Assembly: GCF_003334315.1 (NCBI RefSeq)
Contig: NZ_QOWR01000040.1
DNA from: Escherichia coli
Lineage (GTDB): Bacteria; Pseudomonadota; Gammaproteobacteria; Enterobacterales; Enterobacteriaceae
Length of the DNA stretch: 43,800 nucleotides
Direction: 5' to 3' (one strand)
Within the stretch, counting starts at the first letter, position 1. Each line of letters begins with the position of its first letter. The notes beneath the pieces are model-generated. The model saw only the letters and a program-made list of their open reading frames with translations, was not told the DNA's origin and made no database searches. Positions 10,699 through 35,655 of this stretch are shown piece by piece. Both the position numbers and the translations under genes were made by a program.

Positions 10699-10721
10699 TC
10701 CGTACAACGCTTTCTGGTGAA

Positions 10722-10806
10722 TGGTGCGGGAGGCGAGACTTGAACTCGCACACCTTGCGGCGCCAGAACCTAAATCTGGTGCGTCTACCAATTTCGCCAC
10801 TCCCGC
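10722..10806 (-). tRNA. leuW: tRNA-Leu (anticodon UAG)
   Basis: Reverse complement is GCGGGAGTGGCGAAATTGGTAGACGCACCAGATTTAGGTTCTGG... with long variable arm; 85 nt. Confidence 0.95.
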
Positions 10807-10815
10807 AAAAAAAGA

Positions 10816-10892
10816 TGGTGGCTACGACGGGATTCGAACCTGTGACCCCATCATTATGAGTGATGTGCTCTAACCAACTGAGCTACGTAGCC
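10816..10892 (-). tRNA. metT: tRNA-Met elongator (anticodon CAU), first gene of the operon
   Basis: Identical to the tRNA-Met at 10532-10608. Confidence 0.95.
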
Positions 10893-30425: not shown

Positions 30426-30548
30426 TGCTACTTGCTCCTTGTGTGCTACGGTGTCATTTATGATGAGGAATTGTATGGAACATTTTTTAAATATTAAGTT
30501 CCTTATATTTGAATAAAAAATGACTTTATCCATACATTGCCACTTTTT

Positions 30549-30683
30549 TCAAAGCATAAACCGATACCCAATACCGGTTTCAGTAATAAAATGGCGAGGC
30601 CGGGCCGGATCCTGTTCCAGTTTTTGTCGCAGATGCCCCATATAATTACGCAAATAGTTGCTGTGTTCGATCGCGTTTAGACC
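30549..30683 (-). pseudogene. ybfI: KdpE-like response-regulator C-terminal fragment (ybfI-like remnant)
   Basis: ~135 bp roughly 90% identical to kdpE 3' end at 34978-35112; in-frame translation ...IEHSNYLRNYMGHLRQKLEQDPARPRHFITETGIGYRFML* versus KdpE ...VEHSHYLRIYMGHLRQKLEQDPARPRHFITETGIGYRFML*; no N-terminal receiver domain. Confidence 0.8.
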
Positions 30684-30732
30684 CTACATCTGCCGGATGC
30701 GGCATAAATAACGAACTATTTGCCAACAAACA

Positions 30733-30773: not shown

Positions 30774-32093
30774 TTAACCGTGTTTATTTTTCAGTTCAAA
30801 GCGTGGTGATACCAGACCATACAGTGTCCAACCAAGGAAGGTCACGATGGAACCGTACAGCATGGCTTCTTCCCCGGATGAGTACAGCGCATAGAAACTG
30901 TACATCGCGCCAACAAAAGCAACAAAGTTTGCAACTTTCGCTTTTGAGGGGGGCACATTAGCGACCTTCTGAATAATGACTAATGCCGCCATTGACAGAA
31001 TATACGGAATGATATTGGTCACCACGGCCAGGTTAACCAGCACGTTGAACTGACTGTTTAGCGACGGGCTAATCGTCATCAGCGCCAACCCGCTCTGGAT
31101 AATCACAATGGTCAACATTCCCTGCACCGGTGCATCCACTTTGGTTACACGGGAGAAAATTTTAGGGAAGTAGCCTTCATCAGATGAAGATTTAAACACC
31201 TGGGCAATGGTGAACTGCCAGCCAAGTAGCGAACCGCAGCAGGACATCACCATCAGCGCCATAATGACTTTACCCACTTCCGGCGTGAACATCTGCGCGA
31301 AGGCCAGACCAAATGGTGCCGTTGAATTTGCCAGCTCCATATTTGGCACAATCCCGGCAATCACGTTGGTGGAGACGATATAAATCACCGCCGCACCTAA
31401 CGTACCGCCGAGTACCGCGATTGGCACATTACGTTCCGGGTTTTCCACTACATCAGTATTTGCACACGCAGACTCCAGACCAAGAAAAGCCCACAGCGTC
31501 ATAGCGATGGAAGAACCTACCGCACTGAAGAACGGTGCATGATGCGGATTCCAGGAATCAACGTACAGCGTCGGGCTAAACCAGAACCAGCCAATAATGC
31601 ACAGACCGACGACCGGAATAATGACCCCCCACACGGTAATGCTACTGATTTGCCCGGTAATGCGCGCACCACCAAAGTTAGCCACGGTACAAATCCACAG
31701 CACCCCGATGGTCGCAAGACCAATCTGCACTGGCGACAAACTCGCGCCGAGCAGTTCGGTGCCGTAACCAACCGCCGAAATAGCAATCGCGACGTTAGCA
31801 ATCAGCAGTGAGACGCCGTAGGTATAGTTCGCCATAAAGTTACCGGATTTACCGAAAGCATACTCGGCATAACCGCCCATACCGCCTGATTTACGGCTGA
31901 ACATACCGCATTTTGCGAATGCCCATGCCAGTGCCATTGAGCCTACGGCTGTCACCAGCCAGGAGATAATTGAGATTGTCCCGACTTCGGCAAGCTTTGT
32001 CGGCAGCATGATGATACCGGAGCCCATCATGTTGACCATCGTCAGTATGGTTAACTGAACGACGCCCATTTTGTTCGATTTAGCCTGACTCAT
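30774..32093 (-). CDS. potE: Putrescine/ornithine antiporter PotE (439 aa)
   Basis: APC-family multi-TM protein; 4-bp overlap with speF stop. Confidence 0.95.
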   Translation of the reverse strand: MSQAKSNKMGVVQLTILTMVNMMGSGIIMLPTKLAEVGTISIISWLVTAVGSMALAWAFAKCGMFSRKSGGMGGYAEYAFGKSGNFMANYTYGVSLLIANVAIAISAVGYGTELLGASLSPVQIGLATIGVLWICTVANFGGARITGQISSITVWGVIIPVVGLCIIGWFWFSPTLYVDSWNPHHAPFFSAVGSSIAMTLWAFLGLESACANTDVVENPERNVPIAVLGGTLGAAVIYIVSTNVIAGIVPNMELANSTAPFGLAFAQMFTPEVGKVIMALMVMSCCGSLLGWQFTIAQVFKSSSDEGYFPKIFSRVTKVDAPVQGMLTIVIIQSGLALMTISPSLNSQFNVLVNLAVVTNIIPYILSMAALVIIQKVANVPPSKAKVANFVAFVGAMYSFYALYSSGEEAMLYGSIVTFLGWTLYGLVSPRFELKNKHG

Positions 32094-34288
32094 AATTTTT
32101 CCCCTTTCAACAGGGTGCTTTGCGCATCACGAGGCTTGATGACATAGCACCAAACTTGCTTACGACCATCATGTTCTTCGATATAGACACCCTGCAGCTC
32201 CGGTGCAAAACCTGGCAGCAGGTTGATCCCTTCTTCCAGAGCGCTGAAGTAACGCAGAACAGCACCACCCCAGATTTCACCCGGAACAACACACAGCACA
32301 CCCGGAGGATAAGGAAGCGCACCTTCGGCAGCGATACGGCCTTCTGCATCCGGCAGACGAACCAGTTCCACTTCACCGCGTAAATAGGCGTAGTTGGCTT
32401 CTTGCGGATTCATGCTGACGCGTGGGAAGTGCTCCTTACGGAACATCTCTTTTTGCAGTTGTTTCACGTTGTGGCGGGCATACAAATCATGCATTTCCTG
32501 ACACAACTGACGCAGGGTATAACCGGCGTAGCGCTCTTCATGCTGTTTGTAGATGGAAGGTAGCACTTCTGCTAATGGCGCGTCGGACTCAAGCAGTTTT
32601 TCGAAGCGTACCAGCAGGGCAACAAGTTGCTGAAGTTTGGCCATATCTTCTGCCGGAGTCAGCAGGAAGAGGATGGAGTTAAGATCGCATTTTTCCGGCA
32701 CTACGCCATTTTCGCGTAGGAAGTTAGCAAGAATCGTCGCGGGTACACCGAACGCTTCATATTCGCCGTTACGTGCATCAATACCTGGGGTTGTCAGCAA
32801 CAGTTTGCATGGATCGACAAAGTATTGATTCTCTGCATAGCCTTCAAAAGAATGCCAGTGTTCCCCTGGTACAAACTGGAAGAAGCGCAGATCAACCGCA
32901 ATTTGCGCTGTTTCATACGACTGCCAGGGTTTACCATCCACCAGTTCAGGTACGAACGGACGAATATGCTGACAGTTATCGAGGATCAGTTTGCGGGCAT
33001 TAATGCCATTTACCACACAATCCATCCACATATTACGACCGCTGACACCTTCATGCATTTTGGCGTTGATATCCAGTGCGGCAAACAGCGGATAGAACGG
33101 GCTGGTGGAGGCGTGCATCATAAAGGCGTTGTTCATGCGTTTGTGCGGTACATAACGCTGTTGCCCTTTGATGTGGCTGTCTTTTTTATGAATTTGTGAA
33201 GTCTGAGAAAAACCAGCCTGTTGTTTATGCACAGATTGCGTAACCAGAATACCCGGATCGTTCTCATTAAGATCCAGCAACAGCGGCGAACAGTCCGCCA
33301 TCATCGGAATAAACTGTTCATAGCCGACCCATGCTGAGTCAAACAGGATGTAGTCACACAGATGACCAATTTTATCCACCACCTGGCGGGCGTTATAAAT
33401 CGTACCGTCGTAGGTGCCTAACTGAATCACAGCGAGGCGGAAAGGACGAGCCTCTTTTGCCCGCTGCGGTGCGACTTCCGCGATCAGCTCACGCAGGTAA
33501 CTTTCTTCAAAACAGTGCGCATCAATGCCACCGATAAAGCCATACGGGTTACGTGCCGTTTCCAGATAAACCGGTGTTGCACCAGCCTGTAGCAACGCTC
33601 CGTGGTGGTTAGATTTGTGGTTATTGCGGTCAAACAGCACCAGATCACCCGGTGTTAGCAGGGCGTTTAAAACCACTTTGTTAGAAAATGAAGTGCCATT
33701 TAAAACGAAGTAGGTTTTATCGGCATTAAACACTTTTGCCGCATGTTGCTGTGCAATGCATGGCGCGCCTTCGTGAATCAGCAGATCGCCCATCGCTACG
33801 TCGGCGTTGCACAAGTCGGCACGGAACAGCGCCTCACCAAAGTATTCCACAAACTGATTCCCCGCCGGATGGCGACGGAAAAATTCGCCGCCCTGATGAC
33901 CAGGGCAATCAAACGCGCTGTTACCTTGATTGACATAATCGACCAGTGCGCGGAAGAAAGGTGGGCGCAGTTGAGTTTCATAATGGCTGGCAGCGGTTTC
34001 TAACTGGCGACCATAAAATTCTTTACGTGCTTCGCTAGGTTCGAAGACACCAGAAATACGTGAAAGATATTCTGCTGGTATACGTTCTTCATTTTCCGTT
34101 GCAATAAAAACAGGAATGCCATAGCCAGTAGCGTCTATTTCATCGAGTTTTCCACGTTCCACATCATTGACCGATAAAATAATGGCGGCAACGTCAATAT
34201 AATTACTTTCGTCAATATTCACGCATGTACGATGAGTGGAAAAACAATCCGGGCAAGAACGACTAACGGCAATTTTTAATTCTGACAT
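32090..34288 (-). CDS. speF: Inducible ornithine decarboxylase SpeF (732 aa; ORF could start 3 codons upstream at 34297)
   Basis: Large PLP-dependent Orn/Lys/Arg decarboxylase fold; speF-potE operon. Confidence 0.9.
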   Translation of the reverse strand: MSELKIAVSRSCPDCFSTHRTCVNIDESNYIDVAAIILSVNDVERGKLDEIDATGYGIPVFIATENEERIPAEYLSRISGVFEPSEARKEFYGRQLETAASHYETQLRPPFFRALVDYVNQGNSAFDCPGHQGGEFFRRHPAGNQFVEYFGEALFRADLCNADVAMGDLLIHEGAPCIAQQHAAKVFNADKTYFVLNGTSFSNKVVLNALLTPGDLVLFDRNNHKSNHHGALLQAGATPVYLETARNPYGFIGGIDAHCFEESYLRELIAEVAPQRAKEARPFRLAVIQLGTYDGTIYNARQVVDKIGHLCDYILFDSAWVGYEQFIPMMADCSPLLLDLNENDPGILVTQSVHKQQAGFSQTSQIHKKDSHIKGQQRYVPHKRMNNAFMMHASTSPFYPLFAALDINAKMHEGVSGRNMWMDCVVNGINARKLILDNCQHIRPFVPELVDGKPWQSYETAQIAVDLRFFQFVPGEHWHSFEGYAENQYFVDPCKLLLTTPGIDARNGEYEAFGVPATILANFLRENGVVPEKCDLNSILFLLTPAEDMAKLQQLVALLVRFEKLLESDAPLAEVLPSIYKQHEERYAGYTLRQLCQEMHDLYARHNVKQLQKEMFRKEHFPRVSMNPQEANYAYLRGEVELVRLPDAEGRIAAEGALPYPPGVLCVVPGEIWGGAVLRYFSALEEGINLLPGFAPELQGVYIEEHDGRKQVWCYVIKPRDAQSTLLKGEKL

Positions 34289-34598
34289 TTTGTTCATCTC
34301 TTTATTTCAGGTAATAGCAGGTCCTCAATTTCTCAAAGGAGAAATCGATCACGCCGGAAAAAAAGCAAAGCTCCACCGCTGATAAATAAATCAGTAGTTT
34401 GCTTTTTGCAGATGCAATAACCCAGACCAGCCCGGTAACTGGCTATACTCGTCATCCTTCAAGTTGCATATGCTGCGACTCGAATTATTTAGAGTTTAAA
34501 AGGGTTAGCAGTATATGAGCACCGAGGAATACAGGTATTAACCTGTAATGCTTAAAGTCAGGGAGACCTGTACGCTGGGGTGCCCTTTAGTCAGAAGA

Positions 34599-34703
34599 CT
34601 AGCGGGCATTAAAGAAATGAAAGTCAAAACTATTACGATGGGCAAACTTCATGATATGGGGTGTCCGCCTTATATGAGGCATTAAGCGGTTATTATTTTC
34701 CAT
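34599..34703 (-). CDS. speFL: speFL, 34-codon ornithine-sensing ribosome-arrest leader peptide
   Basis: Minus-strand translation MENNNRLMPHIRRTPHIMKFAHRNSFDFHFFNAR*, about 300 nt upstream of speF; matches the described SpeFL apart from a few residues that may be strain variation or imperfect recall. Confidence 0.75.
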   Translation of the reverse strand: MENNNRLMPHIRRTPHIMKFAHRNSFDFHFFNAR

Positions 34704-34977
34704 TTACCTTTACCTCTTGCTGTGTCAGTTGAAGGTAGAGTTATTCTATCCATGAAATGGCTATAATCTGTGAAGAAGATCAACAAAAAACGATCATACC
34801 CCAGATAATAAATCATTAATTATGAATAGCGCCATATTAGACGCTGTTTTGTTATTTAAATGTTGTAATTTTGTGTTTTATATTTGCGTTAAGAAATTAA
34901 ACCTGCCAAATAATAATATTTGGTGCAGGTTTAATAATAAATTAATCACTATTTAAGCGAATTTATTGAATAAAAAT

Positions 34978-35655
34978 TCAAAGCATAAACCGATAGCCAA
35001 TACCGGTTTCAGTAATGAAATGGCGTGGGCGGGCGGGATCCTGTTCCAGTTTTTGTCGCAGATGTCCCATATAAATACGCAAATAGTGACTGTGTTCGAC
35101 CGCGTTTGGCCCCCACACCTGGTTAAGGAGCTGGCGCTGGGTGAGTACTTTTCCGGCATTGTTGAGCAGCACCGCCAGCAGGCGGAACTCAATTGGTGTG
35201 AGATGCACCTCTTCCTCACCCCGGTGAATCACGCGGGCGGCTAAATCGACGGTAACATCGGAAAATTTCACCAGCGGATCGGGTGCGGTGGTGGCAGAGT
35301 GGCGGCGTAATGCGACGCGCAGACGGGCCTGCAATTCGCCAATGCCAAACGGCTTACTCAGATAATCATCCGCTCCGGCATCCAGCGCGGCGATTTTGTC
35401 GCTCTCTTCGCTGCGTGCGGAAAGCACAATCACCGGCACCGCGCTCCACTGGCGCAGGTCGCGGATAAACTCAATCCCATCACCATCGGGCAGGCCGAGA
35501 TCGAGAATAATCAAATCTGGCTTACGGGTAGCCGCTTCCAGCAAGCCGCGTTGCAGCGTTTCGGCCTCATAGACGCGCATCCCGTCGCCCTCCAGCGCCG
35601 TGCGCAGAAAGCGACGAATAGCCTGTTCATCTTCAACAATCAGAACGTTTGTCAC
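34978..35655 (-). CDS. kdpE: Two-component response regulator KdpE (225 aa)
   Basis: Receiver domain ([18 protein letters not shown]-box) plus OmpR-type winged helix; 4-bp overlap with kdpD stop. Confidence 0.95.
   Translation of the reverse strand: MTNVLIVEDEQAIRRFLRTALEGDGMRVYEAETLQRGLLEAATRKPDLIILDLGLPDGDGIEFIRDLRQWSAVPVIVLSARSEESDKIAALDAGADDYLSKPFGIGELQARLRVALRRHSATTAPDPLVKFSDVTVDLAARVIHRGEEEVHLTPIEFRLLAVLLNNAGKVLTQRQLLNQVWGPNAVEHSHYLRIYMGHLRQKLEQDPARPRHFITETGIGYRFML

Follow-up and report, generated by a model that had tools for sequence, protein, structure and literature searches.

The speFL-speF leader of an Escherichia coli chromosomal segment: a majority leader haplotype and a rare, doubtful T15P change in the arrest peptide

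The kdpE-speF interval of the Escherichia coli DNA analysed here (a single stretch of 43,800 nucleotides, hereafter the window) very probably corresponds to the canonical speFL-speF Rho-attenuator leader of this species, its mechanism being assigned by homology to the ornithine-sensing systems published for K-12 (10.1101/604074) and Salmonella (PMC6386406). Every sequence-level element of the published mechanism that could be tested was found present and conserved in the window. The encoded leader peptide differs from that of K-12 at three residues, which have distinct standings: judged from genome comparisons, S5N and T7L, rather than being point variants, are part of the majority E. coli haplotype of this leader, and T15P is a rare change almost confined to draft assemblies that may be a sequencing error.

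Locus, promoter and leader peptide

The window extends along the E. coli chromosome from gltK/gltJ to kdpA and is collinear with positions 684-730 kb of K-12. The genes of interest lie on the minus strand, namely potE (30774-32093), speF (32090-34288, with an alternative ATG at 34297), speFL (34599..34703) and kdpE (34978-35655), and the RefSeq annotation of the same locus likewise places a "leader peptide SpeFL" downstream of kdpE and upstream of speF-potE. The original prediction had speF starting at 34297, leaving a 680-bp region at 34298-34977; the start is most likely at 34288 instead, since the protein then begins with MSELK..., like the RefSeq entry and all orthologues, and the ATG shows the proper spacing from AAAGAG, so that the kdpE-speF interval becomes 34289-34977. 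Nor is this region leader over its whole length, as had been assumed: with transcription starting near 34736 (see below), about 450 nt would be transcribed, and the other ~240 bp hold the kdpE terminator, an AT-rich spacer and the promoter. The DNA upstream of speFL is AT-rich, as originally described, with 22-26% GC at 34800-34950. As a separate observation, SpeF of the window strain carries a private substitution, S201F, within the conserved NGTS(S/A/T)xNK loop and 1 kb from the T15P site.

Promoter elements were located by homology. A TAGAAT hexamer at 34743..34748 (minus strand) is the candidate -10 element, reading TA(A/G)AAT invariantly in 14 species; from it we infer that transcription starts near 34736, some 33 nt ahead of the speFL ATG, which agrees with the start mapped in Salmonella 31 nt upstream of orf34 (PMC6386406). 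Further upstream, the conserved element ATGATC-N11-TGATC-N4-TTCACAG (34768..34797, minus strand), whose GATC and TCAC columns are invariant in the same number of species, may be a regulator site, with its centre near -41. The suggestion that 34704-34977 be searched for CRP or other regulator sites led to one two-mismatch site each for CRP and FNR, both at 34769-34784; as consensus counts over the whole window were at or below chance for both, neither assignment was retained. A sigma-70 consensus scan returned no promoters on the gene strand and three matches on the other strand, which is the chance level. A terminator-like hairpin followed by a U-tract lies after kdpE (34891..34932, minus strand, -14.2 kcal/mol), with a different hairpin occupying this place in the K-12 haplotype.

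The gene strand upstream of speFL had been described as devoid of ORFs, but it contains an ATG-initiated ORF of 44 codons (34682..34816, minus strand), designated "hypothetical protein" by PGAP and overlapping the start of speFL, which is probably spurious. It is very improbable that it constitutes a second functional leader peptide: the frame is open in the window-type leader, it is annotated by PGAP in many genomes, and a similar open frame exists in E. albertii, but it begins ~80 nt upstream of the transcription start proposed above and overlaps the conserved promoter elements, which accounts for its apparent conservation. Moreover, when window-type sequences were compared, 11 of its 135 nt proved variable, whereas speFL showed 3 such sites (T15P included), its frame is broken by stop codons in the K-12 haplotype, and the 44-residue product has no NCBIfam match.

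The leader-peptide gene itself reads exactly as originally predicted, that is, as a 34-codon ORF with an HIRR core at 34599-34703. It begins with ATG, ends with a UAG stop codon, lies on the same strand as speF, 310 nt ahead of the speF ATG at 34288, and encodes MENNNRLMPHIRRTPHIMKFAHRNSFDFHFFNAR. The Pfam SpeFL model PF10940 matches residues 7-33 (E=3.5e-6), and the exact peptide is already present in public databases, in some NCBI records under the name "leader peptide SpeFL". By sequence, therefore, the ORF is a member of the SpeFL family, already known and annotated, and ornithine-dependent arrest by this particular allele is a prediction. NCBIfam holds no model for SpeFL, and Rfam holds no family for the speF leader, giving only sub-threshold matches to isrH and BcKCsr2; the isrH identity was rejected, its score being explained by an ERIC fragment described below.

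Residues described in the cryo-EM study (10.1101/604074) as required or conserved, namely Pro9, His10, Ile11, Arg12, Arg13, His16 and Phe20/26/28/30/31, are all present in the window peptide: Pro9 is followed by HIRRTPH (residues 10-16), in agreement with the HIRRxxH loop, and the aromatic core of the effector domain is kept in full (5/5; Phe20, 26, 28, 30, 31). Arg12 and Arg13 are encoded by the consecutive rare codons AGG-CGG (34665..34670, minus strand), whose role has been described in both systems (10.1101/604074; PMC6386406).

Comparison with K-12 SpeFL (b4803; MENNSRTMPHIRRTTHIMKFAHRNSFDFHFFNAR) resolved the "about three" differences originally reported into exactly three, S5N, T7L and T15P. 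A mistaken reference peptide, one of the two explanations offered for them, is thus excluded by b4803, and the other, allelic variation, holds for S5N and T7L. In our search of the literature, no paper dealt with natural variation of speFL, and none reported an experiment with this allele.

Leader RNA and the predicted attenuation mechanism

The RNAalifold consensus and MFE folds place a pause hairpin, UGCCCGCUAGUCUUCUGACUAAAGGGCA, at 34581..34608 (minus strand), where it encloses the speFL stop codon. This hairpin is kept across 19 Enterobacteriaceae, and its closing pair covaries between UA and CG in 6 sequences (RNAalifold). Two more conserved hairpins, CAGG-N4-CCUG and UACAGGY-N4-RCCUGUA, were found at 34530..34570 (minus strand; RNAalifold, 19 species), the second of which shows a compensatory change between the window and K-12, a U-A pair in one corresponding to a C-G pair in the other. 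In addition, MFE folds predict that the 3' part of speFL (codons ~25-32; 34608..34629, minus strand) pairs with the speF ribosome-binding site, whose Shine-Dalgarno sequence AAAGAG together with the ATG at 34288 (34280..34312, minus strand) would form the other arm of an inhibitory long-range helix. Both haplotypes are predicted to form this helix (fold z-scores of -4.7 and -4.6; duplex -15.5 kcal/mol), and its Salmonella homologue has been validated with compensatory mutants (PMC6386406). Examination for Rho-utilisation features, also proposed originally, yielded a C-rich, G-poor tract at 34476..34695 (minus strand; C/G 1.3-2.0), a candidate rut site compatible with the rut region assigned to the E. 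coli speF leader (10.1101/604074).

According to the homologous systems, transcription would start near 34736 and ribosomes would translate the 34 codons of speFL, RNA polymerase pausing at the hairpin around the speFL stop codon. At low ornithine the ribosome would terminate, exposing the C-rich rut tract and allowing Rho to stop transcription before speF. At high ornithine the nascent peptide, whose sensor domain comprises residues 1-13 and whose effector domain comprises residues 14-34 (10.1101/604074), would capture ornithine in the exit tunnel through the HIRRxxH loop together with Pro9, Arg12 and Arg13; the Phe-rich C-terminal domain would then compact and release at UAG would be blocked. 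The stalled ribosome would mask rut and open the helix sequestering the speF ribosome-binding site, so that speF-potE would be expressed.

A close experimental counterpart is Salmonella orf34 (Ben-Zvi et al. 2019, PMC6386406), which shares with the window an upstream ORF located ~31 nt from the transcription start, the AGG-CGG codons, and a helix between the 3' end of the upstream ORF and the speF ribosome-binding site that closes a "ring" of variable sequence; Rho termination just past the hairpin at the end of the upstream ORF also resembles what is expected for the window type. The two differ in the length of the spacer (379 nt in the Salmonella locus examined vs 310 nt in the window), in the stop codon, which is UGA in Typhimurium and UAG in the window, and in the peptide, where Salmonella has M19 instead of K19. 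TnaC of the tnaCAB operon is likewise a ligand-sensing arrest peptide that blocks release at its own stop codon and masks rut from Rho, but it responds to tryptophan, has another sequence and binding pocket, and is not homologous to SpeFL.

Two haplotypes of the speF leader

The window and K-12 diverge along a block at 34023..34975, with 301 differences over ~950 bp (~30%), which comprises speF codons 1 to ~88, the speFL-speF spacer, speFL, the promoter and the kdpE terminator. The boundaries of this block are sharp, and outside it only 5/1901 positions in the body of speF and 4/678 in kdpE differ from K-12. A survey of 5426 complete E. coli genomes found the window-type leader in 3318 and the K-12 type in 1700. 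Representatives of the former (O157:H7, AR436, 2547, HB37 and HS30-1) share one identical SpeFL, WP_001312672.1 (MENNNRLMPHIRRTTH...), and their leaders differ by up to 5%; ABU 83972, which is B2-like, also carries this type. The peptide WP_001312672.1, common in E. coli and Shigella, belongs to the same haplotype as the window and matches it at 33/34 residues, the remaining one being Thr15 (ACC) instead of Pro15 (CCC).

Both haplotypes display the same kdpE - speFL - speF - potE locus, the same 34-codon length of speFL, the HIRRxxH motif with Pro9, Arg12 and Arg13, the five Phe residues, the AGG-CGG codons, the UAG stop, the pause hairpin and the predicted base-pairing between the 3' end of speFL and the ribosome-binding site. 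Their speFL DNA is 85% identical and the first ~88 codons of speF are 76% identical, while the promoter-distal region and the kdpE terminator are not alignable. By hand count, 11 synonymous changes separate the two speFL genes and no replacements fall in residues 8-34 save T15P, which points to strong purifying selection on the peptide.

A species comparison of 80 loci among the matches listed, to which E. fergusonii, E. marmotae and S. enterica subsp. enterica do not belong, revealed that position 5 is N or S and that position 7 is T, L, A, F, M, I, S, R, V or K (~45 species among the matches listed). Since these two positions vary freely among species, an effect of S5N or T7L on ornithine sensing, which the original prediction had considered possible, is unlikely; T15P alone falls inside the recognition loop, and its authenticity is doubtful.

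The nearest relative of the window-type leader among the matches listed is that of E. albertii, with 89% identity in speF nt 1-264, 84% in the spacer and 72% upstream of speFL, and with a spacer of 307-310 nt in both. The spacer of K-12 (257 nt), by contrast, shares only 69% identity with that of the window and is closest, among the matches listed, to those of Citrobacter amalonaticus, C. sedlakii and Phytobacter (79-83%, 254-256 nt). In view of these affinities, the K-12 leader appears to have been imported, and the window leader appears to be the resident Escherichia type. We found no description of this two-haplotype structure in the searchable literature.

The spacer of the window (310 nt) exceeds that of K-12 by ~51-53 nt owing to a short-form ERIC (IRU) repeat of 57 nt at 34441..34497 (minus strand), both of whose termini match the family at 92%. 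As with other ERIC/IRU elements, it retains both conserved termini and sits in transcribed intergenic DNA. A 71-nt query spanning it was present in 5426/5426 E. coli genomes, at a median of 5 places per genome, and a full ERIC copy was found in another locus (L129). The window element is an internally deleted form without positions ~28-91 (the central ~65 nt), which include the core inverted repeat (…CCCCAGGAGCTTACATAAGTAAGTGACTGGGG…). Among the matches listed, two Kluyvera species and one Citrobacter carry full-length ERICs elsewhere in this spacer; the "ring" between the arms of the long-range helix is therefore a recurrent ERIC landing site.

Distribution and origin of T15P

The nucleotide underlying T15P lies at 34661, where the gene (minus) strand reads CCC instead of ACC (A-to-C) and the plus strand GGGG instead of GGGT. 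The closest complete genomes, HS30-1 and EC20-72C-1, are 5-10 SNPs away from the window over 43.7 kb, and T15P is the sole difference from them within the 680 bp. The exact 61-mer centred on 34661 was found in 0/5426 complete genomes, 3335 of which are exactly one mismatch away, and T15P occurs in 0/3345 complete genomes carrying the window haplotype. Similarly, Pro15 was found in none of ~45 other species among the matches listed, which have T, L or R instead; Pro15 could impair or alter arrest. The exact T15P peptide was recovered from 207 contigs and from 347 index blocks of public assemblies, and its carriers belong to many unrelated backgrounds, 28-490 SNPs apart in a shared 12 kb, several of them being one to few SNPs from a Thr15 genome. 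As the carriers keep the markers of their own backgrounds as close as 55 nt upstream and 86 nt downstream of the site, T15P is homoplasic; the same markers make spread by ordinary recombination unlikely, for very short tracts would be needed. Inspection by eye disclosed no convincing template for a quasi-palindromic or templated origin, and an effect on RNA structure was discarded, the MFE and the predicted structure being identical with A or C. This behaviour of T15P was not found in the searchable literature.

The distribution among assemblies was markedly uneven. Contigs longer than 1 Mb account for 2/347 of the T15P blocks and for 83/1498 of those of three other minor SpeFL alleles pooled (36/868, 3/53 and 44/577), an odds ratio of 0.10 (Fisher p=5.6e-6). 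This ten-fold depletion in contiguous assemblies, the lack of the exact 61-mer in complete genomes and the scatter of carriers over unrelated backgrounds favour a sequencing or assembly error, to which we assign a somewhat better than even chance: a miscall at the boundary of two runs (G3T2 read as G4T1) in short-read drafts, the true peptide being WP_001312672.1. The window is in fact identical to a draft contig, LYBE01000458.1, of an assembly with more than 450 contigs (GCA_002190225.1), and is also found in the Logan assembly of SRR3951468; while the closest complete genomes have 6-7 genes in the tRNA array, the window has 5, as is typical of repeat collapse with short reads. Furthermore, R34H, a real homoplasic minor allele, does occur in a complete genome. 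The plus-strand change GGG[T>G], by which GGGTT becomes GGGGT, fits an Illumina systematic-error motif, GGT>GGG being reported (Meacham 2011, Nakamura 2011) as the commonest or classic context of such errors.

Several observations weigh against an error. Two long-contig assemblies carry T15P (L108, with a 3.4-Mb contig, and L110, with a 4.73-Mb contig), and the homopolymer deletions left uncorrected in L108 suggest that it was built from long reads and not polished with short ones. In addition, a miscall enters the consensus only when most reads carry it, an uncommon situation; the remaining differences of the window from its closest relatives are ordinary transitions and not T>G, and complete genomes sample the lineages with bias.

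The two long-read-like assemblies also speak for T15P as a real, recurrent and nearly neutral hot-spot mutation at the variable "xx" (positions 14-15) of HIRRxxH, which we regard as possible, if doubtful. Its presence in 347 public-assembly blocks, on backgrounds 28-490 SNPs apart per 12 kb, the very short tracts that recombination would need and the tolerance of T, L and R at position 15 in other species, among the matches listed, are all in keeping with it. So is the gene-strand context 5'-AAC-3', which fits the 5'-NAC-3' bias of A:T>C:G changes reported for E. coli by Lee et al. 2012. Against a genuine hot spot stand the absence of T15P from the 3345 complete genomes of the window haplotype and its depletion in contiguous assemblies; besides, A:T>C:G changes are rare spontaneously, and T15P nevertheless outnumbers R34H, a transition, ~7-fold (347 vs 53 blocks).

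That T15P is real and has been repeatedly selected for retuning the switch, altering the basal or induced expression of speF-potE, seems unlikely to us, and a little less likely again is the fuller proposal that it is genuine, arose independently in many lineages and was selected to reset the sensitivity or the basal level of the SpeFL/Rho switch. The same nucleotide change is present on many backgrounds and other single-residue variants are much rarer, which fits a narrow gain-of-function target; T15P lies inside the ornithine-recognition loop, and the window strain has the private SpeF substitution S201F at 1 kb. With the predicted RNA fold unchanged, any effect would be exerted at the peptide, codon or rut level, and three routes may be conceived in speculation: a backbone made rigid at the linker between sensor and effector, an extra rare and slow CCC codon right after AGG-CGG, or one added C in the rut tract. 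However, the depletion that argues for an error applies to selection too, and the absence of Pro15 from orthologues, among the matches listed, stands against a generally beneficial state.

The meaning of T15P depends on which of these readings is correct. If it is a sequencing or assembly error, it constitutes a recurrent false SNP that has produced a spurious protein variant in the databases, and calls for caution in homoplasy and GWAS scans; if real, it puts the "x" positions of HIRRxxH to a natural test; and if selected, it would represent natural parallel evolution on a ribosome-arrest peptide. As a population-genomic observation, the two-haplotype structure of the leader is modest. Studies of SpeFL mechanism and structure have all been carried out on the K-12 haplotype, which is that of about one third of complete E. 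coli genomes, whereas most E. coli have another promoter-distal region, an ERIC element in the spacer and the N5/L7 peptide, and thus conclusions drawn from K-12 may not transfer quantitatively to the majority of the species.

Two leader haplotypes and their elements

Comparison of the window with the K-12 loci (L003 and L004) revealed a block of approximately 950 bp (34023-34975), roughly 30% divergent and with sharp edges, embedded in DNA that displays at least 99% identity between window and K-12 on either side. Among the 5426 complete E. coli genomes, the window-type leader haplotype was found in 3318 and the K-12-type in 1700, and some 400 genomes carry neither. The closest relative of the window-type haplotype was identified in E. 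albertii, and the K-12 spacer is closest to those of Citrobacter and Phytobacter.

A short-form ERIC/IRU repeat (34441-34497) is located inside the speFL-speF spacer of the window. In Kluyvera (loci L014 and L021) and in Citrobacter sp. On2M (L006), this spacer also contains ERICs, there full-length and at different positions. Further upstream on the minus strand lies a 44-codon ORF (34682-34816) that PGAP labels a hypothetical protein (WP_001299172.1 and variants). It overlaps both the promoter and the beginning of speFL, and its own start lies upstream of the inferred transcription start near 34736. This ORF varies across the window-type sequences compared, is closed in K-12, and is probably spurious. 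The same strand harbors the element ATGATC-N11-TGATC-N4-TTCACAG (34768-34797), which contains two Dam sites and has its center some 41 nt before the inferred transcription start. Across 14 Enterobacteriaceae, its GATC and TCAC columns show no variation; its matches to the CRP and FNR consensus sequences do not exceed chance and single out no regulator.

Variants and additional copies of SpeFL and SpeF

Within speF, the window carries a private gene-strand C-to-T change at 33687 (codon 201), resulting in SpeF S201F. The site falls within the motif NGTS(S/A/T)xNK, the PLP-phosphate loop of fold-type-I decarboxylases, where the 81 copies of the motif among the homologue loci listed have only S, A or T. 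The exact S201F protein was found in only 6 contigs, and the closest relatives have Ser at this position, including L090 and L111, which carry the SpeFL substitution T15P.

Another SpeFL substitution, R34H (CGC to CAC), was observed in loci L123-L128; since the speF start offsets differ (1915 vs 1916), it appears, from these sequences, to be present on differing window-type sub-haplotypes, and in contrast to T15P it is carried by a complete genome (CP096902.1). In addition, some E. coli genomes have a second speFL-speF pair at a separate locus (L120-L122), adjoining CdiI or DUF596 genes and encoding a distinct leader peptide, MENNNRKMPHIRRVTHIMKF... (577 blocks).

Elsewhere in the window, the tRNA array at 10410-10892 comprises 5 genes (Gln, Met, Gln, Leu, Met), compared with 7 in K-12 and EC20-72C-1, and 6 in HS30-1; the shorter array probably reflects tandem tRNA-Gln copies collapsed during short-read assembly. 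The IS5D copy found between gltI and lnt in K-12 is absent from the window (around 3026-3033).

Possible recombination at kdpE and mosaicism of the speF locus

A 145-nt direct repeat of the kdpE 3' end is present at 30548-30692 and 34977-35121, with 90% identity between copies, the downstream one being the ybfI or 'winged helix-turn-helix, missing N-terminus' pseudogene. Because these copies flank the entire speFL-speF-potE segment, the arrangement suggests that this cassette was inserted or exchanged via recombination at kdpE, which may also explain why haplotype divergence ends exactly at the kdpE stop codon. In some genomes, as seen in LAM_HS (L002) and H31, an IS1 insertion adjoins kdpE, accompanied in LAM_HS by loss of speFL-speF-potE.

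Deep alleles within E. coli were also observed in the speF body (nt 265-690 of the window gene compared with loci L086 and L087). Over this stretch, window and K-12 share 99% identity, AR436 and strain 2547 display just 88-89% identity to both, and AR436 reaches 93% with E. albertii. As judged from these alignments, mosaicism of the speF locus extends well past the leader.
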